Translations under genes and position numbers: made by a program
The notes under the pieces: generated by a model
The model's database searches: none
Told to the model about the DNA's origin: nothing
The model's input: only the letters and a program-made list of their open reading frames with translations
Part shown: in pieces, positions 2,914-60,961 of the stretch
How the letters are laid out: each line of letters starts with the position of its first letter
Position numbering within the stretch: the first letter of the stretch is position 1
Source of the DNA: a virus
Length of the DNA stretch: 64,000 nucleotides
Direction: 5' to 3' (one strand)
IMG/VR virus record: IMGVR_UViG_3300030329_005959
Span: 40,266 to 104,265 of that record

Positions 2914-3719
2914 AAGCAGTAATAATTGGTGGAGGCTCCATTGGTCAGCGACATGCGGGGAACTTAAAAGGTTTGGGTGTTAATACTAGAATTGTAGATA
3001 TTGATGAAATAGAAACCATAGACTCTATCTTAAATAATGGCTTTGATTTTGGTTTGGTTTGCTCACCGAATCTATATCATATAGAACATTGCACAAAATT
3101 AGCGGAATATAACATTCCAACCTTCTGTGAAAAACCTTTTTATTCTGACGTTGACGGAGTGGCTTCTCTTTTAAAAACTGTTGAAGAAAAAAAATTAATC
3201 ACAATGGTAGCGGCGAACTTAAGATTCGCGGACGAGGTGAAATCTATTGATTCTACAGCTAGCTATATTAATGTCCACTTTGGCTATGACCTAAAAAAAT
3301 GGAGACCAGATTCGGACCACTTGCTTTCTTATAGTGCCAATAAAGCTTTAGGTGGAGGCATTCTCCTAGACGCTATACACGAACTAGATTACCTTTATTT
3401 TAAATTTGGTAAAATACAAGACATTTTTTATAACAAAAGCAAGTTAACAAATATCACAAATGATACCGAAGATTTGGTTGTCGGGCGCATTTATTTCGAA
3501 AGCGGAACTATAGCTGATTTTTCTCTTAACTATCTCTCGGAGGATTATCAAAGATATTACGATATTTTAGAGGACGGCGTTTTAAAAAGAAAAAACATAA
3601 ATATCAGCAACCAGATGTATATAGACGAAATGACTTATTTTATTGATTGCGTGGTATCAAATACCCAAGGTATGAATAGTTTTAATGAGGCAAACACACT
3701 GTTAACTACAATTATTTAA
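2910..3719 (+). CDS. Gfo/Idh/MocA family oxidoreductase
   Basis: IIGGGSIGQRH, CEKP and GGGILLDAIHELD motifs. Confidence 0.85.
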   Translation: MKAVIIGGGSIGQRHAGNLKGLGVNTRIVDIDEIETIDSILNNGFDFGLVCSPNLYHIEHCTKLAEYNIPTFCEKPFYSDVDGVASLLKTVEEKKLITMVAANLRFADEVKSIDSTASYINVHFGYDLKKWRPDSDHLLSYSANKALGGGILLDAIHELDYLYFKFGKIQDIFYNKSKLTNITNDTEDLVVGRIYFESGTIADFSLNYLSEDYQRYYDILEDGVLKRKNINISNQMYIDEMTYFIDCVVSNTQGMNSFNEANTLLTTII

Positions 3720-10320: not shown

Positions 10321-11425
10321 AGAGATTCAACCACAAGAACTTCTTGGCAATTATTTGAAAGCGCACAAGGAAGATCACTATAATTTCGAAGATAGCATAG
10401 ATTATAAAATCTCCAGCGGCTCTCTTCAATTTGACATGCATCTGGAGGGTGGCTTTGGGCCTGGGTTGCATCGTTTCACAGGAGTCAACGAAGGCGGCAA
10501 AACTTCAGAGTCTTTACAGGTTATGAAAAACTTTCTTAAGGGACTCCCCAAATCACGGGGGCTATATGTAAAAGCGGAAGGACGATTAGGGCCAGAGGTT
10601 CAAAAGCGCTCTGGTGTTAAGTTTGTTTTTTCTCCTGAAGAGTGGGTAGACGGAACTTGTTTTGTTTTTGAAAGCAATATTTATGAAACAGTAATGGGAC
10701 TAATACGACAACTCATTACTAATAACGAGGACAAGGTTAAATATTGTTTTATTTTAGATTCTGTGGACGGTTTAATCCGCAAAGATGACCTAGACAAAAA
10801 CTTCGAAGAGAGCACTAAAGTCGCTGGGGGTGCGGTTGTTGCCTCTAATTTCTGCAAAAAAACGAGCACCGCTCTGGGCAAGCGAGGGCACATGGCTATC
10901 TTCATTAGTCAAGTCCGTGCGGACATTAAACTCGACCCTTATTCCAAGGCTCCTGTTCGCCAAACCACAGCTACAGGGGGGAACGCTCTCTTGCATTTTG
11001 CGAACAACATTTTAGAGTTCGAACCTCGCTTTAAAGGAGATTTAATTTTGAAAAACCCTTCCGTCAAAACAATGGATGCGAAGAAGAATCCAATTATTGG
11101 ACACCATGCCAAGGTTACTATTAAAAAATCCGCTCACGAAAACACCAACACAACCCTTTCTTATCCTATTCGTTATGGGCGCATAGACGGCAACTCAATA
11201 TGGGTGGAGAAGGAAATCGTAGATCTCCTCTATGCGTGGGAATTTGTGGAAAAGAAAGGCGCGTGGATTAAGCCTAGCGATGACTTTAAAGAGTTAGTTG
11301 ACTCCAAAGGATTTGGTTTTCCTGATAAAATTCAGGGCGATAACAATCTCTTTAAAACTATAGAAGATAACAAAGAATTGTCTGCATTTCTAATAGACTA
11401 TTTCAAGGAACAGATAAATGCATGA
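10313..11425 (+). CDS. recA: RecA/UvsX-like recombinase
   Basis: Walker A GVNEGGKT, Walker B FILDSV, FISQVR and TGGNALLHFA. Confidence 0.85.
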   Translation: MSKEIQPQELLGNYLKAHKEDHYNFEDSIDYKISSGSLQFDMHLEGGFGPGLHRFTGVNEGGKTSESLQVMKNFLKGLPKSRGLYVKAEGRLGPEVQKRSGVKFVFSPEEWVDGTCFVFESNIYETVMGLIRQLITNNEDKVKYCFILDSVDGLIRKDDLDKNFEESTKVAGGAVVASNFCKKTSTALGKRGHMAIFISQVRADIKLDPYSKAPVRQTTATGGNALLHFANNILEFEPRFKGDLILKNPSVKTMDAKKNPIIGHHAKVTIKKSAHENTNTTLSYPIRYGRIDGNSIWVEKEIVDLLYAWEFVEKKGAWIKPSDDFKELVDSKGFGFPDKIQGDNNLFKTIEDNKELSAFLIDYFKEQINA

Positions 11426-11829
11426 AGTTTATTGACTCATATGGCAAACAGAGAAATCTAAAGAACGCAAAGAAGTATTTAATAGATTGGGACAAGCCTA
11501 GCCGCAGCAAGTTCCAAACCCAAGTTAAAAGGTTTCTAAGAAGGTATTGGAAGAATGATATTGTGTTCGAAGAGTTTAGGGTCGTAGGCACTCGCCTTAC
11601 CTTAGACTTTTATAATGCCAATAAAAAGATAGCAGTTGAAGTTCAAGGGGCACAGCACACAAAATTTGTTAAGTTTTTCCATAAAAATCGTTTCAAGTAT
11701 AGAGAGCAACTCAAAAGGGATGAAAAAAAGCTCGACTTTTGTAAAGCTAATGATATAAAGTTGGCAGAAGTTTATCCACAGGACAAAATAGTAGCCTCAT
11801 TATTTAAAAAACAGGATATTTATTTATGA
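11422..11829 (+). CDS. DUF559/Vsr-like endonuclease
   Basis: LDFY...IAVEVQGAQH...RDEKK pattern. Confidence 0.7.
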   Translation: MKFIDSYGKQRNLKNAKKYLIDWDKPSRSKFQTQVKRFLRRYWKNDIVFEEFRVVGTRLTLDFYNANKKIAVEVQGAQHTKFVKFFHKNRFKYREQLKRDEKKLDFCKANDIKLAEVYPQDKIVASLFKKQDIYL

Positions 11830-43254: not shown

Positions 43255-43295
43255 ATTTTTATTTACACTTTATTACCCTATTATATAATAAAGAA

Positions 43296-50815: not shown

Positions 50816-51065
50816 ATTAATTAAATTGTCGTATGCGATACTTTCTATTATCGCAGGGTTAACGGTAGGGGTTGTCTTGTCCCTGTATGTGGGGCTAATG
50901 TCTTGCATCCAAACACTTATTGTGTTTCCTTTTCAGATCTATACCAACTGCGTGGCCAATGCCATAGAGAAGAAAATAAAAGCTATGGGCTCCCCCGCCC
51001 AAGGTGACGAGGATATGTGGGATCGACACATCCAAAGGATGGAAGAACAGAGCAAAAATAACTGA
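50805..51065 (+). CDS. Small membrane protein
   Basis: Long hydrophobic N-terminus; start moved to ATG 50805. Confidence 0.55.
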   Translation: MNIKLIKLSYAILSIIAGLTVGVVLSLYVGLMSCIQTLIVFPFQIYTNCVANAIEKKIKAMGSPAQGDEDMWDRHIQRMEEQSKNN

Positions 51066-51066
51066 T

Positions 51067-51618
51067 ATGGTTGATCTATCACAAGCAAAACAAATAGAAG
51101 GTCACGAAGACTATTGGGTATTTCCTGATGGAAGGGTTTACAGCAACAAATTATGGAGAGGCAAAAGGGGTAGGTTTTTGAATCCTCCACTTAGAACTTG
51201 TGGAAAGAAAAAATATCGCACTGTGAGTTTGTGCGGGAAGAAAGGTAGGGTTTTAAAATCATTACATGTTTTAGTAGCTGAAGCCTTTATTGGCCCTCGA
51301 CCAACTATAAATGGAAAAAGAACAGAGGTAGACCATATAGATGGTAACTCTTTAAATAATCACGTAGACAATCTTAGATATGGCACTAGAGCAAACAATC
51401 AAATTAACAGACCGCCAGAAGAAAACTGTTTATCGAAATATAAAGGTGTTTCTCTCAACGTTAGGGGGCGACCATTTGCTCAATTAAGTATTAATAACAA
51501 AACTAAATATCTAGGAGAGTTTAACACTGAAATAGAAGCTGCAAAAGCTTACGATAAAAAAGCTTATGAAGTTCACGGTGAGTTCGCTTACCTTAACTTC
51601 CCAGAAGACTACAGATGA
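51067..51618 (+). mobile_element. Free-standing NUMOD4-HNH-AP2 homing endonuclease
   Basis: YWVFPDGRVYS, HVLVAEAF, VDHIDGNSLNNHVDNL, SKYKGV and YLGEF..E.EAAKAYD. Confidence 0.85.
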
Positions 51619-52004
51619 ACACAAAAGAACTACTCCAACTCCACGATGATACCTGCGAGGCTTGCAAGGCAATCATGCAACAGAAAAATAGCGATTACAC
51701 TGGAGGCAAGAATGCTACAGATATATTTGCTAATTTTAATTCCTCTAAGATCTTAAACATCCATCCAGTTCAAGGCTTGCTTCTGCGATTAATTGACAAA
51801 GTTCAAAGGATTCGTTCCTTTACCAACGACAAGGAATTGAAAGTCGCAAATGAGTCTGTAGATGATGCTTGCGATGATATCGTAAACTATGCTATCTTGG
51901 CTAAGGCGATGTTGCGGGAGGAAAGATCCCAGATTGAACAGGACCGCCGAAATAAAGCAGGGCCGACACCAGATCAAGGAGGCCATCCAGCAGGGTGGTG
52001 CTAA
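51615..52004 (+). CDS. DUF1599/Nmad1-like all-alpha nucleotide-modification-associated protein
   Basis: KNSDY, FANF, RLIDKVQR and ESVDD...DIVNYAIL. Confidence 0.7.
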   Translation: MNTKELLQLHDDTCEACKAIMQQKNSDYTGGKNATDIFANFNSSKILNIHPVQGLLLRLIDKVQRIRSFTNDKELKVANESVDDACDDIVNYAILAKAMLREERSQIEQDRRNKAGPTPDQGGHPAGWC

Positions 52005-52017
52005 ACATATAAGGTAA

Positions 52018-52263
52018 GTGAAAAAGAAGATTCATATAAACCAACACAAAATTCGGCGCAACGCCAAAACAGGAGAGCGCGAGCCTGTGATTACAGTCAA
52101 AACTTACAAGACAAACGATTATTGTCATGCTGTTACCATCACTTCTCCATGCAGGGTTATATATTCTCCCGACAAACCTTTACCATGTGGCGCAAAAGTC
52201 TGGATCGAAACCGAGGGGGACGTAATATGTTCCCAGATCGAAGAGGATTCGCCAAATAAGTAA
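52018..52263 (+). CDS. Conserved phage hypothetical protein
   Basis: IHINQH.IR.N.K...PL.CGAKVWIET. Confidence 0.7.
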   Translation: MKKKIHINQHKIRRNAKTGEREPVITVKTYKTNDYCHAVTITSPCRVIYSPDKPLPCGAKVWIETEGDVICSQIEEDSPNK

Positions 52264-52265
52264 AT

Positions 52266-52342
52266 GGGTGCGTAGTCCAACTGGCAGAGACAACGGACTT
52301 AAAATCCGTCCAGTGCGGGTTCGAATCCCGCCGCGCCTACCA
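52266..52342 (+). tRNA. trnL: tRNA-Leu(TAA), short variable arm, encoded CCA
   Basis: Acceptor GGGTGCG/CGCGCCT, anticodon arm ACGGA-CTTAAAA-TCCGT, T arm GCGGG-TTCGAAT-CCCGC. Confidence 0.92.
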
Positions 52343-52385
52343 CACAATATATTTATATTCGCGCAGTTTATGTGTAAATATATAT

Positions 52386-53507
52386 ATCAAGCTACTATCT
52401 ACCATAGCGAGCCTACTTGTTTTTACATTTTCATCTTTAGGGTTATCTCAAGAGTCTAAATCTAACCTATTTGGGTTTCATTCAGAAATAGTAAGAGCAA
52501 ATACTTATAATTTAATAGGTATTAATGTCGCTACTCAACCTCACGGTAGATTAATAAGAACTATAGGGCAAGCTTTCGGCCTTGAAAACGCGGCGGGTTT
52601 AAAAAGTCCTACGTTTGGATTTGATAGTAACGATCCGACAGAGGCAGATGTAGTATGGATTTGGCGTGATGACGGTTCTTGGTTGGGAATATACTACAAT
52701 GACCAAGACTTAAGAACCGAAACCCCTCCGATGACAAGGGGTTGGAAAGCGATTGGTTTCGGGGACACTGATGCATCCCGAGTTGTTATACCTGAAAACG
52801 GGGGATTTTTACTACAATCTAGACAAGAAAGAGATTGGTTGTTAGTTTTTGGAGGAAATGTAAATGCATCCCCTAAATTTTTAAACATTAAAAATGGTTA
52901 CAACATTGTAAATAGAGGAACTCCTTGGCCTTTGAGGTTAGATGAATGTGATATAGAGAACTCTCACAGCTTCCGTAAAGGTGCTAATGGTGATTTGATT
53001 GGGTTCGATAACTCTGATGGAAAATGGGAGCAATATTATTTTGATGGTGAGTGGAAGAAAACAGACTCACCAGATGGCGATTACGGTCATGTAGAGCTAC
53101 CCTCTGCGTTCTTTGTATACAGAAGAGGTAAGCAGGGTTATATCTGGATACGACCCCCCGTGGGCGTTTCTCCGACGAAAAATAAATTGGGCAACACTCC
53201 ACCAGCACCCGATGTATCTGCAAGATTGGGTCTTAACGAGTGGGGTAATCCAATTTTTGAGATTTCATGGCACTCAAGTAGCCCTAAAATCATTTACAGA
53301 ACTGAAGTCTTTGGTTCCCACCCAGATTTACCACCCGAGGAAGCAGGAGACAGAAGCAGTTGGTTTTATTTACCCCCTCGTCGTGGCACTTGGGGCGATC
53401 ACTTATCCGATCACGCCCTGTTACGTTGGTTGCGCTATGGAATAGTTAGAGTTTCTGCCGAATGGGAATATGATAATACGTCTCAGCTAAAAGCCCAGAT
53501 CGAATGA
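52386..53507 (+). CDS. Secreted/periplasmic beta-rich protein (373 aa) with an apparent ATC start
   Basis: Frame is open ~300 nt upstream of the tracked start and encodes the signal peptide (I)KLLSTIASLLVFTFSSLG; GTGTAA lies 8 nt upstream. Confidence 0.6.
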   Translation: MKLLSTIASLLVFTFSSLGLSQESKSNLFGFHSEIVRANTYNLIGINVATQPHGRLIRTIGQAFGLENAAGLKSPTFGFDSNDPTEADVVWIWRDDGSWLGIYYNDQDLRTETPPMTRGWKAIGFGDTDASRVVIPENGGFLLQSRQERDWLLVFGGNVNASPKFLNIKNGYNIVNRGTPWPLRLDECDIENSHSFRKGANGDLIGFDNSDGKWEQYYFDGEWKKTDSPDGDYGHVELPSAFFVYRRGKQGYIWIRPPVGVSPTKNKLGNTPPAPDVSARLGLNEWGNPIFEISWHSSSPKIIYRTEVFGSHPDLPPEEAGDRSSWFYLPPRRGTWGDHLSDHALLRWLRYGIVRVSAEWEYDNTSQLKAQIE

Positions 53508-53508
53508 T

Positions 53509-54192
53509 TTGGCCCAAATAATGGATAATGATATCCTAGAATTTCTTCAAGCGTCCTTATCTGCCCCTTTTAGCAGCATGGATTCTTTATTGTTTCTCCG
53601 CATACCGAAGAATGCGAGTTCTTCTATCATGGAAAGCCTTGGCACTAGAAACATAGTTAAAAAGTATGAAAAAAAACTACAAGAATCCTTAGATAAAAAT
53701 ATTTATAAAGATTTCTTCACTGCTACTCATGCTCGCCCCCACGAACTACAAACAGTTATCGGTGCAATAGAGCTTGATTGTTTTTCTTTCGCTGTTGCTC
53801 GAAATCCTTGGGACAGGGCTGTTTCTATGTATCATTTTGCCAAAAAACTGGGGCTAGGGGATCTGTTTGGGTTCTCTAACGACTTATCTTTCGAGCGTTT
53901 TTGTGAAGTTCTTGAATCCCGAGATGGGGACCGTTTGTTTATGCCTGTCTTTAAGCAAACCGAATGGACCCATAGTTCCATAAAGGTTAATGAAATATTA
54001 AAATTTGAAAATCTGAGCGAGGATTTCTCAACTATGGTAAAAAAGCACCAAATAAAACATATTTCCCCTGATCTACCCCACATTAATAGCACCGTTCACA
54101 AACCTTATCGGGATTATTTTAATTCCAACACTCAAAAAATTATAAAAAAAGTATTTGAAGAGGATTGCGATCTTCTTAAATATGTTTTTTGA
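53509..54192 (+). CDS. Sulfotransferase family 2 protein
   Basis: RIPKNASSS (5'-PSB), RNPWDRAVSMY (3'-PB) and KFENL; start may be ATG 53521. Confidence 0.8.
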   Translation: MAQIMDNDILEFLQASLSAPFSSMDSLLFLRIPKNASSSIMESLGTRNIVKKYEKKLQESLDKNIYKDFFTATHARPHELQTVIGAIELDCFSFAVARNPWDRAVSMYHFAKKLGLGDLFGFSNDLSFERFCEVLESRDGDRLFMPVFKQTEWTHSSIKVNEILKFENLSEDFSTMVKKHQIKHISPDLPHINSTVHKPYRDYFNSNTQKIIKKVFEEDCDLLKYVF

Positions 54193-54285
54193 TCCCAGAT
54201 CGACTGCGATTTTCCCAAATAAGCGCGTGAGTCCCAGATCGAATGATATTTTTCCAAATAAGTGATTAGATTTTTTAATCGACTG

Positions 54286-54615
54286 TTATATTTTTTTCTT
54301 TACAGAAACTAAGTTTTGTATTTGAACGATTAAACTCATCACATTATCAACAGAAATTTTTTCTGCGATTACACTTAGGGGAAAGTTCATCTCCGTATCT
54401 AATCTTATTCCTTCTTCTCTTTCCTCTGGCGTGACGATCTCCATGACGTAATCATACAAACCTTTTCTCTTTAACAGGTTAAAATAATAATCTCTTTGTT
54501 GTTGTTGCGACTCCACCAATACATCGAGTCCGAGGTTCATGCTGGTCACCATTGTGAGATACCTAAAATATAATCCTTCGTTTGTAGTCAGATGAGAAAC
54601 CACAATAAGATTCAT
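54286..54615 (-). CDS. Hypothetical protein
   Basis: MNLIVVSH...; GTGTAT motif 8 nt upstream of ATG 54615. Confidence 0.55.
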   Translation of the reverse strand: MNLIVVSHLTTNEGLYFRYLTMVTSMNLGLDVLVESQQQQRDYYFNLLKRKGLYDYVMEIVTPEEREEGIRLDTEMNFPLSVIAEKISVDNVMSLIVQIQNLVSVKKKI

Positions 54616-54672
54616 ACTATTATATACACTATGGTCGGGGTGAAAAAAATTCGAATTAAGGCAAAAAAATGC

Positions 54673-54700
54673 TTGCGCCCCCATTTCCCTAGTATATAGT
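54673..54700 (+). promoter_or_regulatory. sigma70-like promoter with upstream A-tract
   Basis: TTGCGC-N16-TATAGT; ATG 8 nt downstream. Confidence 0.65.
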
Positions 54701-54708
54701 GTCTCCAT

Positions 54709-54945
54709 ATGAACGAAACACCTAAGAAGCGGGGTCGCCCAAAGGGTTCCACATCATTCACTAGGGTTAGACTTGGTGACCTACTGGATTCCTTCGGACC
54801 CGATGCTGCTATTGTTGTATCCAAGAAGTGGATGGATGAGGTTGGTCTGACCGTTGCTCCTGCTCCTGTCAAGACACTCCCTGCTGCTTCTGCTCCCGAG
54901 CAACCAGAAGAGAAGATTGAGTTCTCTGTTAATACGTTTGAGTAA
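54709..54945 (+). CDS. AT-hook-like small DNA-binding protein
   Basis: KKRGRPKG at the N-terminus. Confidence 0.65.
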   Translation: MNETPKKRGRPKGSTSFTRVRLGDLLDSFGPDAAIVVSKKWMDEVGLTVAPAPVKTLPAASAPEQPEEKIEFSVNTFE

Positions 54946-55865
54946 TGAGTCAACCTGTTGATATGTTTGAGGGTCTTATCGGACAGGATACCCTCAAGAG
55001 TCGCCTCCACTTCTATAGCAAAGCAAAGGAGGCTACTGGCACACTTCCTTTTCTTCTGTTTAATGGAGCAAAGGGTCTGGGCAAGACTGAGTTCGCAAAA
55101 TCATTTGCGAAGTCTCTGGGCAAGCCGATGATAGAAATTAATTGTTCTACTATTCGCAATGCCGAGCAGTTCTTTGAGCAGGTTTTTATTCCTGCGATTC
55201 TGGACAAGGATGTGACCGTTCTGTTAGATGAGGCTCATGCCTTACCGAAAGATTTAGAGATGGCGTTTCTCACCATCTTTAATATCGAAGGTGCCAAGAC
55301 AAAACGATTTGAATTTGGTGAAAACAGTTTCCTGTTCGACTTCCAAAGGCAGACTTTCTTGTTTGCTACTACAGAGTTGGATAAATTGTTTCCTCCTTTC
55401 AAGGACCGTCTCACTCAGCTTGACTTCGAACCATACAACGGAAAAGAGTTGGCTGGAATCATCCAGAAGAAACTCGACTGGATTACTTTTGGTGATAACG
55501 TCCTTGCTACGGTCGCTGAGACAGTGCGAGGTAATGCTCGCTCCGCAATTAAACGCGCATTAGAAATCAGTGCGTATGCCGAGGTCAATAACAGGGCTAA
55601 GTTCAATCTAGAAGACTGGAAGAAACTTTGCGATCTGTTGGGCATCTTGCCATACGGCATCAATGCGACTGAGTTGCAGGTGATGCGTATCCTGAAGGAC
55701 CGTGGTGCTTGCACGTTGCAGATGTTGTGTGCTGTCACTGGAATGTCGAGGACGGCAATCCAGAAGGATGCCGAAATCTACCTGCTGAAGAATGGGTTCA
55801 TGCGAATAGACGGCAAGCGGGAGATCACAGGCAAGGGAACCCAGGCATTAGAAAGGATAGGTTAA
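54945..55865 (+). CDS. ruvB: RuvB-like Holliday-junction branch-migration ATPase
   Basis: LIGQ, GAKGLGKT, LDEAH, ATT, PFKDR, RGNAR and C-terminal wHTH (E.YLL..GF...GR). Confidence 0.8.
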   Translation: MSQPVDMFEGLIGQDTLKSRLHFYSKAKEATGTLPFLLFNGAKGLGKTEFAKSFAKSLGKPMIEINCSTIRNAEQFFEQVFIPAILDKDVTVLLDEAHALPKDLEMAFLTIFNIEGAKTKRFEFGENSFLFDFQRQTFLFATTELDKLFPPFKDRLTQLDFEPYNGKELAGIIQKKLDWITFGDNVLATVAETVRGNARSAIKRALEISAYAEVNNRAKFNLEDWKKLCDLLGILPYGINATELQVMRILKDRGACTLQMLCAVTGMSRTAIQKDAEIYLLKNGFMRIDGKREITGKGTQALERIG

Positions 55866-56173
55866 TGGCAAAAAAACAATACTCACTTCCCTCTACCATT
55901 AAAGTCGGGGACATCGAATTTAAAGTAATTTTAAAGAAGATGAAAGACTTTGGTGATATGGATATCGACAAGAAGGTCATAAGAGTGCGTGAGGGAATGA
56001 CATCAGAGGAAACATTCGATACCCTGATGCATGAGGTGACCCATGCTGCTCTCGCAATCAGTGGCTTAACTAACATTTTAGATGATGAGAATCTGGAGGA
56101 GGCTATTGTTCGCCTAACAGATTACGTGCTGTTCCCTGTATACAAAAGAGAATATGACAACTACAGAAAATAA
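55865..56173 (+). CDS. Small HEXXH metallopeptidase-like protein
   Basis: TLMHEVTHA; start ATG 55865. Confidence 0.65.
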   Translation: MAKKQYSLPSTIKVGDIEFKVILKKMKDFGDMDIDKKVIRVREGMTSEETFDTLMHEVTHAALAISGLTNILDDENLEEAIVRLTDYVLFPVYKREYDNYRK

Positions 56174-56327
56174 CAAGAAGAAGTTTGGGGTCTGTATAAA
56201 ATTCCTCAACAAATTTGATATTGAGGCGACCTCAGAAGAGGAAGCAGTAAGGATAGTGAATAATATGGACAACCAAGATTTGCTAAACGACTCTTATTTT
56301 AACATTGAATATATTTACGAATCGTGA
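56154..56327 (+). CDS. Small hypothetical protein (57 aa, not in ORF track)
   Basis: MTTTENN...IEATSEEEAVR; fills the gap and overlaps both neighbours. Confidence 0.5.
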   Translation: MTTTENNKKKFGVCIKFLNKFDIEATSEEEAVRIVNNMDNQDLLNDSYFNIEYIYES

Positions 56328-56632
56328 AGATGACAAAGCATCAGAAAGACACAATTAAAAACATCATTATCGGATTTTTAATTGGGGTAATAATTGCCTT
56401 GTGGTTAACCATCATGCGAGTCTGCATAGAGAAGGATGCCATAGAGGAGATGATGACGCCCCCCACTCCACCTAAAATTAAACGGGAGTTTCCTAAAGAC
56501 TACGAGAGAGCAAAAAGAAAGATGCCTGTTGTTCCTGATGCTGAGTTGACTCCAACCGAATATTTAAAAATAGCGAGTCTGTATCCAGAACTTTTTACCG
56601 ATGAAGAAATTGTTAACCTGTTAATCCAATGA
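56324..56632 (+). CDS. Single-pass membrane protein
   Basis: IIIGFLIGVIIALWLTI. Confidence 0.6.
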   Translation: MKMTKHQKDTIKNIIIGFLIGVIIALWLTIMRVCIEKDAIEEMMTPPTPPKIKREFPKDYERAKRKMPVVPDAELTPTEYLKIASLYPELFTDEEIVNLLIQ

Positions 56633-56955
56633 AAAAGACATTATTGTTTGTGTTGTTTTGTGGTAGCGTTGTTGGTGCTGCTGCTATTTTAAAGACAAAA
56701 AAGGAACCTGTGGTTAAAGAAATCACTGTCTCCTATGATAATAAAAAACAAAAAGAAATACCAGTTACGGTAACTTTGACGAAGTTTCAACTTGAAAAGA
56801 TGTTGGACATGGTGGATGATGAGTATGGATACGGTGGTCCCGCTTCCCCGCAAGACAGTCTCACCTTCACTTCAATAGCTAAAGCTAAGGCCCCTCCTCA
56901 TTCGCAGGAATACAGCATCTCCTCGACTCATTTAGCTAAAGAACCAATAAGATAA
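56629..56955 (+). CDS. Membrane-anchored/secreted hypothetical protein
   Basis: MKKTLLFVLFCGSVVGAAAIL. Confidence 0.6.
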   Translation: MKKTLLFVLFCGSVVGAAAILKTKKEPVVKEITVSYDNKKQKEIPVTVTLTKFQLEKMLDMVDDEYGYGGPASPQDSLTFTSIAKAKAPPHSQEYSISSTHLAKEPIR

Positions 56956-57278
56956 TGAATACCGCATTAATTAATGTAACTGATACGATGCTCAAGAAAA
57001 GCATCATCGACGCAAACAAAAGCGTTTGCGAATTCGCCAAAACCTTTTCCTTCGATTATAACGAAGCTGAGTGTGGCGACCGCAAGCCTTTCGAGGCATC
57101 CTACCCTGATGGCACTCCCGCAAAGGTGACCTTCTACCGTGCCAAGACCAGAGGGGACAAGCGCATCTCCATCACCAAGCTGAAGAAGTTTGCCGATGCT
57201 GGAGACAAAGTAACCCTCCTCAATACTGATGATGATGAGGTAATTAAAATTCTTATTAATGTCACGGTCGATGAGTAA
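56955..57278 (+). CDS. Hypothetical protein
   Basis: 107-aa ORF with TAATG coupling. Confidence 0.6.
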   Translation: MNTALINVTDTMLKKSIIDANKSVCEFAKTFSFDYNEAECGDRKPFEASYPDGTPAKVTFYRAKTRGDKRISITKLKKFADAGDKVTLLNTDDDEVIKILINVTVDE

Positions 57279-57456
57279 GATATACAATTATATGTTTGAT
57301 GTGGCAGCATCACTCGAAACATCGAAAGCTTTTGATGATATTACTGTGCCAGAGTTTTGTGCTGTCATGCGGGACCGTCTCGATAGACTTGAGAACGATA
57401 ACGAGATCGAAGCGTTTGGTCTTTGTGATTCAGTTGTAGTTGAAGGAGATGAATAG
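57271..57456 (+). CDS. Hypothetical protein
   Basis: Short ORF in the operon. Confidence 0.5.
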   Translation: MSKIYNYMFDVAASLETSKAFDDITVPEFCAVMRDRLDRLENDNEIEAFGLCDSVVVEGDE

Positions 57457-57715
57457 AGAACTAGAAGCAAGATATTTGCACTTAGAAATTGGTGACGAAA
57501 TCGAGGTGCAGGTCAAGCTAGATGATGATGGAGTAGTGGTCGATGCCTTTAGGGGCGAGCCGATGGAGGGAATCCCTCACCATATCGGGTCCACTTGGAA
57601 AACCTATGCAGAGATGGGAGTGGAAGTAAATGAAATTAGGAAGGCAACCCCTGAAGCATTAACAGAATCTGTTTTAGAGGATATGAGCATCGAGTTTTTG
57701 GAGGATAGCGAATGA
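57449..57715 (+). CDS. Acidic hypothetical protein
   Basis: Short ORF in the operon. Confidence 0.55.
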   Translation: MNRELEARYLHLEIGDEIEVQVKLDDDGVVVDAFRGEPMEGIPHHIGSTWKTYAEMGVEVNEIRKATPEALTESVLEDMSIEFLEDSE

Positions 57716-58386
57716 AAAAATTTCTTAAATCAAGAAAGCAACTCACGGTTAATCCTACCGACATCACCGATTTTAATCGGGACACTAATCAACTGGAAGC
57801 TTTTTGGTTGTTCTGTATGTTTGTGGCGGGGAAGAACAGTGACTATGCCTCCCGTTGCCTGAGCAAATTAATTCATGCGGCAAAACTTGGTCAAGACATA
57901 GGAGAGGAGGGGGTTTTTAATTATTTTAAATCCATAGGTGAAGTAGGAGTCCACAATGCACTGGTCGCAAGCAAGGTCGGACAGTATGGTAGACTAACAA
58001 AAGGTATCATGCAGTCTCTTGATCTTGATTTGGAGGCTTGCACTCTGGATGATCTGCTTGCCATACATGGTGTGGGTAATAAAACTGCTAGATTCTTCTT
58101 GCTTCACACCAGACAGGGTTGTGACTACGCAGTCTTAGACACCCACATCCTCTCATGGATGAGGAGTCATGGAGTTCCCGATGCCCCCAAGAATACTCCG
58201 ACCAACAGTAAGAAATACAAAGACCTAGAGAAACAGTTTAGGTATTTGTCTCGACTCAAGTTTCCCTACCTGTCAGATGCACAAATTGATTTGTTGATTT
58301 GGTTAGACCAGAGCAACAGGATATCAAGAGACGAAGTATTTGATATGGAGTTTCCCTTTGAGTCTAGAGATGGTGTAGATGATTAG
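57712..58386 (+). CDS. HhH-GPD DNA glycosylase (Ogg2/8-oxoG glycosylase-like)
   Basis: IHGVGNKTARFFL (HhH with Lys), AVLDTH and IDLLIW. Confidence 0.75.
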   Translation: MKKFLKSRKQLTVNPTDITDFNRDTNQLEAFWLFCMFVAGKNSDYASRCLSKLIHAAKLGQDIGEEGVFNYFKSIGEVGVHNALVASKVGQYGRLTKGIMQSLDLDLEACTLDDLLAIHGVGNKTARFFLLHTRQGCDYAVLDTHILSWMRSHGVPDAPKNTPTNSKKYKDLEKQFRYLSRLKFPYLSDAQIDLLIWLDQSNRISRDEVFDMEFPFESRDGVDD

Positions 58387-58387
58387 T

Positions 58388-58543
58388 ATGGACAAAAAAG
58401 AAGGTTTGTTTGCTGCTAGTTGCTTCTTGTTTTGCTTCGGGGGAGTAGTTCTTGCTACCACCAAATTAGAATGGTTGAGTTGGTGTATGATGGCAACGGC
58501 AGTAGGCTTTTGGTTTGCGGGTCTTTATAGAGGATTAAAATAA
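58388..58543 (+). CDS. Small two-TM protein (51 aa, not in ORF track)
   Basis: MDKKEGLFAASCFLFCFGG...; GTGTAG motif 9 nt upstream. Confidence 0.5.
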   Translation: MDKKEGLFAASCFLFCFGGVVLATTKLEWLSWCMMATAVGFWFAGLYRGLK

Positions 58544-58890
58544 ATTCTTTTAAATTATATCAAACCCCGTTTGCAATTACTAAAACCCCCCTTCCCCCTT
58601 ACATTACCACACAATAACAACACTCATCCTACATACAATACATAGGATAGACAATAGACTAGAAATAAAGAGGTGAACAGATTCTGTCCAGTTAGATGGG
58701 AAAGTGGATACAACCTACCCTTTTTAATTATTTAAATACCATTTAAACACATTTTACTTAAAAAGTGGACGATTATAGCCCAGTTACACTACTTGTTTTG
58801 TTTTTTTCTTTACTTTTACTTAGCTTATGTAGCGGAGCAAAAACCTCACATAGAGACGAAGAGATAGACGATTACTGGTCGGACGGTTAG

Positions 58891-59070
58891 CCAGATCGTG
58901 CAGATCAACTGAAATAATCTAAATAAACAAAGGGCGCGGATCGACTGGATCGAACGAAATAACCTAAATAAACAAAAAGTTCCAGATCCCCAGATCTATC
59001 GCAAATAATTAAATAAGCGATTGGCCGCAGATCAAACGCACAATACTAAATAAGTGATTGGCCGCAGTCA
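58891..59070 (+). repeat. Tandem array of four ~45-bp units built from GATC-N14-AAATAA motifs
   Basis: GATC at 58894/58903, 58939/58948, 58985/58993 and 59030, each followed exactly 14 nt later by AAATAA. Confidence 0.85.
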
Positions 59071-59178
59071 CCACCTGTCGAGCGGATCGACACGTTGCCA
59101 CGACCTGTCGAAATGGTGGCCGAAAATCGACACGTTTCTTTTGTTAGGTTGCGCCCGAATTTTTTCTCATTTAAATGC

Positions 59179-59207
59179 TTGACCCCCACCGTAGGTGGGG
59201 GTAGAGT
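59179..59207 (+). promoter_or_regulatory. sigma70-like promoter with a palindrome in the spacer
   Basis: TTGACC-N17-TAGAGT; CCCCCACC-GTA-GGTGGGGG; ATG 6 nt downstream. Confidence 0.65.
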
Positions 59208-59213
59208 GCAGCC

Positions 59214-59501
59214 ATGACTCAAACAGAAGAGTATCCACTACCGACAGTCCACCTTAACGGCACCTCGAAAGAGATGTTACTTGAGGGTAACGAGGGAATC
59301 ATCCGTGCAATACACAGGCTCAAAGAAGCAATTCAGAATTGTCAGTTCCACCCCAGAGACTACTATGTGCATCCCCTTGAGGACACCGTTATCGGAGGGG
59401 CCTATGGTCTAGCAGCAGATGAACGGCAGAAGCACCTCCAGGCATTGGCAGACTTCGAAGCATACATCCTCAAGCACTACGATCATATCAGCGGACAGTG
59501 A
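59214..59501 (+). CDS. Hypothetical protein
   Basis: PTVHLNGTS...HPRDYY; own promoter and terminator. Confidence 0.7.
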   Translation: MTQTEEYPLPTVHLNGTSKEMLLEGNEGIIRAIHRLKEAIQNCQFHPRDYYVHPLEDTVIGGAYGLAADERQKHLQALADFEAYILKHYDHISGQ

Positions 59502-59581
59502 TCGAAATAATCATTCTGATTTGTTTGATTTTACTCGCCATCACTAGAAGCTAGGATCAAACGAAACAAACTAAATAAGTG

Positions 59582-59611
59582 GGTCGCGGAAACGCGGCCT
59601 TTCTTTTTTTT
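59582..59611 (+). terminator. Intrinsic terminator
   Basis: GGTCGCG-GAAA-CGCGGCC-TTTCTTTTTTTT. Confidence 0.75.
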
Positions 59612-59630
59612 GGTATGCGAATCTTGCGTC

Positions 59631-59707
59631 ATAAGTCGTTGATACTTAGGGAGTTACGGCGAGCGGCGGGGCGCGTCCTCGTAACTCGTTGACGCTTAGT
59701 GACTTAT
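59631..59707. repeat. 77-bp double-palindrome element, copy 1
   Basis: ATAAGTCGTTGATACTTAGGGAGTTAC-N23-GTAACTCGTTGACGCTTAGTGACTTAT. Confidence 0.9.
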
Positions 59708-59901
59708 GACTTCTTTCTCCTCCTAAAACTCTCGTTCTTTTTGCTGCGCCAGTCTTGGGGACCAACCCCACGCTTACGCAACCACTCATCACAGGCTTTG
59801 CCTACTGTAGTAGATAGCCCACGCATGTAATTCATTTGTTTCTCCTCTGGAGCTACTTCCTTTTTTGGTCTGCCTCGACCTCTGTTATTCGTCGTGTTCA
59901 T
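59704..59901 (-). CDS. AT-hook-like small basic protein
   Basis: RGRGRPKK. Confidence 0.6.
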   Translation of the reverse strand: MNTTNNRGRGRPKKEVAPEEKQMNYMRGLSTTVGKACDEWLRKRGVGPQDWRSKKNESFRRRKKS

Positions 59902-60781: not shown

Positions 60782-60808
60782 GCCCTTTTTTATTCTTTTT
60801 TATCCTTT

Positions 60809-60885
60809 ATAACTCGTTGAAACTCAACGAGTTACGGGCGCGGGGCGGGGCCGCAGCCGTAAGTCCTTGAGGGTGAGTGAGTTGT
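60809..60885. repeat. 77-bp double-palindrome element, copy 2
   Basis: ATAACTCGTTGAAACTCAACGAGTTAC-N23-GTAAGTCCTTGAGGGTGAGTGAGTTGT. Confidence 0.9.
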
Positions 60886-60961
60886 GGCGGGAGCAACGGG
60901 ACTTGAACCCGTGACCTCTAGCGTGACAGGCTAGCGCTCTAACCTACTGAGCTACGCCCCC
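60885..60961 (-). tRNA. trnD: tRNA-Asp(GTC), encoded CCA
   Basis: GGGGGCG acceptor; CTAGC-CTGTCAC-GCTAG anticodon arm; TTCAAG T loop. Confidence 0.93.

Follow-up and report, generated by a model that had tools for sequence, protein, structure and literature searches.

Why should a short, two-part motif recur on one strand only, at the ends of unrelated genes, in the genome of a marine phage? The question is raised by a 64-kb stretch of viral DNA (hereafter the window, meaning the whole stretch analysed; bases 40266-104265 of one 104,265-bp virus record), in which GATC is repeatedly followed 14 or 15 nucleotides (nt) later by AAATAA, both as dispersed copies and in a tandem array. A preliminary description of the window, made from its letters, listed 13 copies of the motif and proposed that they are oriented sites maintained by selection on DNA rather than on protein. 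Here we find that the motif is a selected, lineage-specific and strictly polar element, and we tentatively interpret it as a bipartite promoter-type signal that doubles as the recombination seam of its region, an interpretation in which our confidence comes close to, and stops somewhat short of, an even chance. The phage has the appearance of a siphovirus. Among its products are a J-type tail fibre, a minor tail protein, a DnaE-type polymerase, DnaB helicase, TerL, PhoH and a RuvB homologue, and the public runs that contain it are marine metagenomes. No near relative was found by DNA similarity among deposited phage genomes, where protein matches are distant, and the comparisons below draw on 51 related loci (233 kb in total; handles beginning with L) from IMG/VR and metagenomes.

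The existence of the element and its polarity are readily established. Within the window, the exact pattern GATC-N14/15-AAATAA occurs 12 times and only on the + strand, whereas shuffled sequences contain a mean of 0.93 and a maximum of 4, none of 100 shuffles reaching 12; a 13th copy, at 51932, is a GATT variant, and the 13 copies first listed are thus all accounted for. Elsewhere in the genome and on the opposite strand no site of similar strength turned up, as searching the entire 104,265-bp genome with a loose pattern adds a single weak match on the minus strand, and a two-block weight matrix yields 13 strong matches over the same genome, every one of them on the + strand at window positions 51932-59578, and none on the minus strand. 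Seven of these 13 are members of nested pairs, offset by 8-9 bp, within the four units of the array (layout GATC-N5-GATC-N5-AAATAA-N3-AAATAA), and hence the 13 matches collapse to 10 independent sites: five dispersed copies (M1 to M5), four array units and one terminal copy (Table 1). Each is an element of 28-29 bp with two boxes in a single orientation and the fuller consensus CCCAGATCGAA-N9/10-CCAAATAAG. The CCCA that had been noticed in front of GATC is real and forms part of the left half, CCCAGATCGAA, while the right box has a TAAATA core of which the dispersed copies keep only AAATA. The phage does not encode a Dam methylase of the D12 class.

The same element is kept in the 51 related marine phage loci, where the weight matrix finds 311 matches on the array strand and 1 on the other, so that an oriented bipartite element, proposed from a single sequence, is upheld both by a polarity of 13:0 within the genome and by 311:1 across the lineage. 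The 91-kb relative G001 has just six copies, on one strand and within ~1.3 kb, and a search of bacterial species genomes with the core of array unit 1 returned only one match, a chance occurrence in an AT-rich stretch. Conservation is concentrated on the boxes. In the orthologous doublet (M4 and M5), compared over six genomes, both boxes and their spacing are invariant and the spacer of the first copy differs, and array unit 1 hardly changes among lineages that share only 70-85% identity in their coding DNA. The number of array units ranges from 3 to 7 among relatives, and a contig of one metagenome run (X7) omits one unit, with 58979 joined to 59028. This variation in copy number would suit the idea that the motifs are functionless scars, left behind by repeated duplication or by lost tRNA genes, as would two further observations: in relatives CCCA plus GATC is the exact junction between the 3' end of a tRNA gene and its trailer, and the DUF1599 genes of L021 and L049 natively hold a motif-like stretch at the position of M1. 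Neutral scars would, however, decay evenly, whereas here boxes and spacing persist while spacers diverge and unit 1 stays nearly unchanged amid much less conserved coding DNA, and we regard this idea as highly improbable.

The dispersed copies mark seams in DNA that is hypervariable. From the DUF1599 gene to the doublet this region spans 1.3-3.1 kb; its gene content differs in the window, L004, L021 and L049, and it holds genes for a sulfotransferase, glycosyltransferases and an SGNH-type enzyme together with small open reading frames (ORFs) and a tRNA gene. Similarity between relatives breaks at or inside the motif: that of the DUF1599 gene to its counterparts in L021 and L049 stops inside M1, and the doublet has at least four different left neighbours among relatives, three of these among near-identical ones. 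To the right of the doublet the conserved block comprises a 140-amino-acid (aa) gene on the minus strand, a 78-aa gene and the RuvB homologue. The repeats thus flank accessory genes and coincide with the breakpoints of indels and replacements, as do the promoter-early stem-loops (PeSL) of T4-type phages. It had been noticed that unrelated proteins end in the same motif-encoded peptides, and the tails are as described. They are the products of motif junctions, as is best seen in one ORF that ends ...PSWFERVV in L021, where the motif is missing, and ...PSWFIAQIESSCAK in L004, where it runs into the motif. Since the shared tails are junction products, and since boxes and spacing are kept at orthologous sites whatever the spacer, selection acts on the DNA and not on the protein, as first argued.

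In many relatives the array itself is interrupted by genes, namely tRNA-Leu, tRNA-Met and tRNA-Arg, located between its units. The CCCA of the motif then consists of the last three acceptor-stem bases and the discriminator base of the tRNA, with GATC directly next, and tRNA-Met always starts 7-9 nt after a right box. The array in the window lacks such insertions. The tRNA-Leu of the window shares 96% identity with that of L021 but sits 6.6 kb 5' of the array, where it begins 6 nt after the end of the M2 right box, and a contig of run X7, which joins 52332 to 58891, presents the alternative arrangement; tRNA-Leu therefore occupies two alternative sites, each adjacent to a motif. One sub-lineage (L072, L074, L075, L076, L080, L083, L085, L092 and L097) has a conserved transmembrane mini-ORF of 33-34 aa between array units, which begins 4 nt past a right box and whose end lies in the TAA of the right box of the following unit. 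A different mini-ORF, which would open at an ATG of the left box and close at the TAA of the right one, was rejected, being in frame only with N14 spacing and not conserved.

This organization invites comparison with gene capture, in which the motif would be the dedicated recombination site of a site-specific enzyme of phage or host, by which cassettes of tRNA genes, mini-ORFs and accessory genes would be inserted and excised, and the array a landing pad, integron-like without an integron integrase. Direct copies frame the cassettes, ORFs stop within the site that follows and begin a few nt past the preceding one, a layout shared with integron cassettes, 'empty' units occur, similarity breaks sharply at the left edge of the motif with one crossover inside a copy, tRNA-Leu changes between motif-adjacent positions, and an HNH-AP2 endonuclease gene adjoins the region, in this genome only. 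A tyrosine or serine recombinase was, however, not found in the genome (PF00589 is absent), the two boxes lack inverted-repeat symmetry and do not fold into an attC-like hairpin, and a well-resolved indel, in L021 compared with L004 and L049, has the motif on one side only. As ordinary homologous or illegitimate recombination beside a selected regulatory site gives the same pattern, we consider a dedicated capture site quite unlikely.

We favor instead a regulatory site that recombination exploits, and the candidate regulatory function is suggested by the phage's own upstream signals. A promoter-like class that has a -10 element only, TGTAAWWW, precedes ~16 genes, most often 5 nt before the start codon. 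Examples of the form GTGTAA(A/T)(A/T)(A/T) lie at 43268 (minus strand), 45385, 49363 and 52372 of the window and at 3064 and 19522 of the genome, and the GTGTAA class has no shared upstream box. The main promoter-like octamer of the phage, TGTAAATA, resembles the T4 late promoter TATAAATA, which is located at -13 to -6 and has the form CTAAATA in Aeh1 (PMC1524935), and the spacing of TGTAAWWW to genes matches this -13 to -6 geometry. A Shine-Dalgarno-like word precedes no more than 20 of the 94 genes, the DNA in front of start codons being simply A/T-rich, and because such words are rare, leaderless expression appears to be the normal style of the phage. The genome also has a canonical TGnTATAAT before one early gene and encodes a protein that matches Sigma70_r2 only (genome 4217-4936; 24.6 bits, just above the cut-off), in which region 4 was not found. 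Against this background, the right box of array unit 1 (TCTAAATA) is one base off the octamer TGTAAATA, and the right boxes of array units are in general one or two bases off.

We propose that the right box (YYAAATA+A) may be read as a -10-type box, being a near copy of the octamer, whose presumed reader is the small sigma-like protein and whose usual distance to start codons would give leaderless mRNAs. The right box has no upstream TG, for which the GATC box might compensate. With the right box placed at -12 to -6, the GATC box would fall at about -32 to -22. Middle promoters of T4 combine a MotA box at -30 with a -10 element, and the candidate binding factor of the left box, an activator or a sigma domain, could act there much as MotA does at its box. 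Transcription of small genes just behind a unit, namely tRNA-Leu in the window and tRNA-Met, tRNA-Arg and the 34-aa ORF in relatives, would then yield leaders of 0-5 nt. Under the same geometry the ATG of the 34-aa ORF lies exactly at the predicted +1, and both the tRNA-Leu of the window and the tRNA-Met of relatives begin 6-9 nt past the box, with predicted leaders of 2-5 nt. The orientation of the motif is that of the surrounding + genes, and at least six independent ORFs run through it to stop inside or beyond it. Such read-through is harmless for a promoter, whereas a terminator, roadblock or cleavage site would produce stop-less mRNAs. Furthermore, the 28-29 bp, being repeated in a single orientation, would serve as crossover points at which accessory genes could be gained, lost and moved, and ORFs upstream of a crossover would run into the motif and acquire its codons; the phage carries RuvB. 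Of the functions that the preliminary description offered, a promoter class fits best, although as a local class of 10 sites and not as one spread over the genome.

Several observations weigh against this proposal. The right box is a poor host -10 element, a consensus scan found a sigma-70-like site in none of the units, the left box corresponds to no -35 element or activator site described so far, the genome yielded no MotA homologue, and the GTGTAA promoter class is itself deduced from sequence. For several copies no co-oriented gene that they might serve is obvious: directly behind the terminal copy comes the terminator, an arrangement conserved in three genomes, the array of the L036 type points towards the site of convergence, and in the window the first gene beyond the doublet is a convergent one, although in L021 the 78-aa and RuvB genes follow it directly on the + strand. 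In two to three cassettes the start codon overlaps the right box, and that copy therefore cannot serve them. Units 45 bp apart are too close to be occupied by RNA polymerase simultaneously. As inter-unit spacers are 12-13 nt, any inserted gene must begin near a right box, which weakens the argument from geometry, and where tRNA-Leu stands at the head of the array its leader is variable (0-19 nt) with no unit upstream, implying that the array is transcribed from upstream anyway. Other promoter readings were tried and rejected: the right box alone as a genome-wide promoter, since YYAAATAAR is not enriched before genes elsewhere, and a minus-strand promoter with TTATTTG as a Bacteroidetes -7 element, since local host-type promoters are canonical and the transcripts would be antisense to all local genes. 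A search for a single-subunit RNA polymerase gave no match and is uninformative, as the control search was likewise empty in any genome.

The positions of the copies also fit polar punctuation of transcripts, either by a bound protein that halts RNA polymerase in one direction, like a stoperator, or by an RNA processing site at gene ends and tRNAs. Every copy begins at or within ~25 nt of a gene 3' end, GATC directly follows the tRNA discriminator base in relatives, and copies cluster at the ends of + blocks, beside the terminator and at convergence points. The last copy is, as first reported, immediately to the left of the convergence of + and - transcription. Only 3 nt separate it from a strong intrinsic terminator (59581-59600), and this pairing recurs in L008 and L025. 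Orientation tracks transcription, as it does in stoperators (PMC9283540), and a strand-specific element is what an RNA-level function predicts. Punctuation would, on the other hand, have to be read through for at least six ORFs to reach their stop codons and would silence the genes 3' of M1-M3. There is no conserved RNA structure; 8 of the 10 units fold no better than shuffled sequences, which eliminates an RNA hairpin, RNase III site or intrinsic terminator in the units, and the two that fold better both rest on self-pairing of GATC. An Rfam search matched only the two tRNAs, the sites are local rather than genome-wide, and no repressor or integrase was found. Punctuation is thus an unlikely function of the element.

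The array, being made of direct repeats, could alternatively be a set of origin iterons, perhaps those of an origin primed by transcription like that of T7 or T4, with the dispersed copies as auxiliary binding sites. The repeats are part of a 670-bp hub without coding sequence that also contains A-tracts, a GATC cluster and other repeats, the array is better conserved across relatives than the neighboring coding DNA, and the nested 9-bp register suggests cooperative binding. No initiator gene adjoins the array, however: the AAA+ neighbor, considered as an initiator, was dismissed because it is a full-length RuvB homologue, and the replication genes are ~40 kb away. GC skew, proposed earlier as a check, only tracks gene orientation. 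Iterons would also leave unexplained why dispersed copies stand exactly at cassette seams and why tRNA genes and ORFs are tolerated between units, and we judge them improbable. The seam positions and the adjacency to tRNA genes likewise give no support to two functions put forward in the preliminary description, replication terminator and injection-pausing signal, neither of which accounts for them. A centromere or partition site was rejected because no ParB- or ParA-like genes were found in the genome.

A broader proposal joins several of these elements. The array may be an integrase-free platform for gene capture and expression, in which each unit is both a leaderless-expression socket and a crossover site and gene-less units possibly act as a transcription-primed origin. 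The socket would consist of an activator box and a late-like -10 element, and tRNA genes, mini-ORFs and genes for glycan modification would be inserted into such sockets, replaced there and transferred from one to another. Taken as a whole, this platform seems to us unlikely to be correct.

The element and the features around it are listed in Table 1.

Table 1. Features of the motif-bearing region, in window coordinates.
Feature	Position	Strand	Remarks
Dispersed copy M1 (GATT variant)	51929..51955	+	Inside 3' part of DUF1599 gene (51615-52004)
Dispersed copy M2	52233..52260	+	Encodes last residues of 81-aa ORF (52018-52263)
tRNA-Leu(taa)	52266..52342	+	96% identical tRNA heads array in relatives
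Dispersed copy M3	53495..53521	+	Contains stop codon of 274-aa ORF
Doublet M4 + M5	54195..54261	+	Sharp left edge of conserved block
Conserved 41-aa hydrophobic ORF	58765..58890	+	Stop codon abuts array in all relatives
Array	58891..59053	+	Four units of ~45 bp each, three of them nested doubles
Host-type promoter-like site TTGACC-N17-TAGAGT	59179..59207	+	Conserved in relatives
95-aa gene	59214..59501	+	Helical-hairpin model; accompanies array in nearly all related loci
Terminal copy	59552..59578	+	3 nt before intrinsic terminator
Intrinsic terminator	59581..59610	+	Convergence point of + and - transcription; only strong terminator there

Several neighbors of the element deserve description in their own right. 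M3 shares bases with the sulfotransferase gene's first candidate start codons. At the left end of the region the HNH-AP2 endonuclease gene (51004-51618) lies directly 5' of the DUF1599 gene and is probably a free-standing homing endonuclease, because it is absent from this position in L004, L021 and L049. In the conserved block, positions 54709-55865 hold the full-length RuvB homologue (306 aa) and, ahead of it, the conserved 78-aa protein, which has an AT-hook-like N-terminus (KKRGRPKG) and may be a RuvA-like partner. To the right of the array, between it and the promoter-like site of the 95-aa gene, positions 59066-59140 hold two inverted-repeat pairs (TGTCGA ... TCGACA) and direct repeats of ~9-11 nt that look like operators; they are kept in some relatives, and others have a 37-41-aa hydrophobic ORF instead. 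The promoter-like site has a palindrome in its spacer and ends 6 nt before the ATG of the 95-aa gene, so that the mRNA of this gene would be leaderless. The palindrome, between the -35 and -10 elements at 59179-59213, is perfect, and its arms change compensatorily between relatives (orthologous sites in L008, L021, L025, L049 and others). The 95-aa protein shows 35-100% identity among related loci, with many invariant His, Tyr and Arg residues, and is predicted to form a long antiparallel helical hairpin. It has no family match and no significant PDB match, and the idea that this neighbor is a recognizable DNA binder was set aside.

A second repeat family, a GC-cored double palindrome of 77-99 nt, occurs at 59624-59712, 60786-60885, ~61671 and 63364, where it punctuates both the early block of the minus strand and the site of convergence. 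It is found in both orientations and in all relatives, with seven copies in L006, and a tRNA-Asp gene (60885-60961, minus strand) abuts one copy in the window. L006, a relative that lacks the GATC box, has ~13 copies of TTATTTG within 800 bp beside the palindrome element (10750-11650). As TTATTTG is the right box read on the opposite strand, this suggests that the A-rich box can exist, and be inverted, by itself.

Among known systems, integron attC arrays resemble the element in their co-oriented cassettes framed by site-like repeats, in ORFs that run into the next site and in cassettes that lack an ORF, but the phage element comes without an integron integrase, without the inverted-repeat (R''/R') structure or folded bottom strand of attC, and with cassettes that include tRNA genes. 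For replication-origin iterons, which would lie next to an initiator gene and a DNA-unwinding element, direct repeats and A-rich DNA are present, and the adjacent gene is RuvB and not an initiator. The stoperators of cluster A mycobacteriophages are likewise asymmetric sites oriented with transcription, often at gene boundaries where they overlap stop or start codons (PMC9283540); they are 13-mers, however, present at more than 20 sites genome-wide in temperate phages and bound by the immunity repressor (PMC9283540), whereas the phage has 10 bipartite sites of 28-29 bp within 7.6 kb, partly in arrays, and neither an integrase nor a repressor has been identified in it.

The proposed promoter function would bring the element closer to the late and middle promoters of T4. 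The right box holds the TAAATA core of the late promoter, at an implied distance from gene starts that fits -13 to -6 (PMC1524935). An upstream box ~12 bp from a -10 element recalls the MotA box of middle promoters, and the small sigma-like protein of the phage has region 2 only. The phage is, however, an unrelated siphovirus whose box sequences differ and which lacks a detectable MotA homologue, and its sites form a local class of 10, known from sequence, rather than a temporal class spread over the genome. If the units are promoters, they would constitute a second, activator-dependent class beside the T4-late-like -10-only signal and its leaderless mRNAs, and would explain by a simple rule how an abundant group of uncultured marine siphoviruses, which is found in Tara and other ocean metagenomes, acquires and exchanges its tRNA and accessory genes. 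Across this widespread marine lineage the element frames tRNA genes and mini-genes in tandem 'sockets', and the motif can serve as a marker of the hypervariable region and tRNA platform in metagenomic contigs.

The closest parallel is provided by the PeSL of T4-type phages, repeats that act as recombination seams and recombine with one another to give mini-circles (PMC2839356; PMC4122927). Both are short repeated regulatory motifs in hyperplastic regions, kept in one orientation and flanking non-essential or orphan genes, both mark the places where relatives differ by insertions, deletions and replacements, and neither has a dedicated recombinase. They differ in architecture, as a PeSL combines a sigma-70 consensus promoter with a stable stem-loop terminator, of which the phage element has neither, while the latter is a bipartite sequence of 28-29 bp that forms tandem arrays and frames tRNA genes. 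Overall, the element is most likely a variant of a known principle, that of regulatory repeats doubling as recombination seams in phage hyperplastic regions, and if its units are promoters, the PeSL principle would extend beyond T4-type myoviruses to another element architecture.

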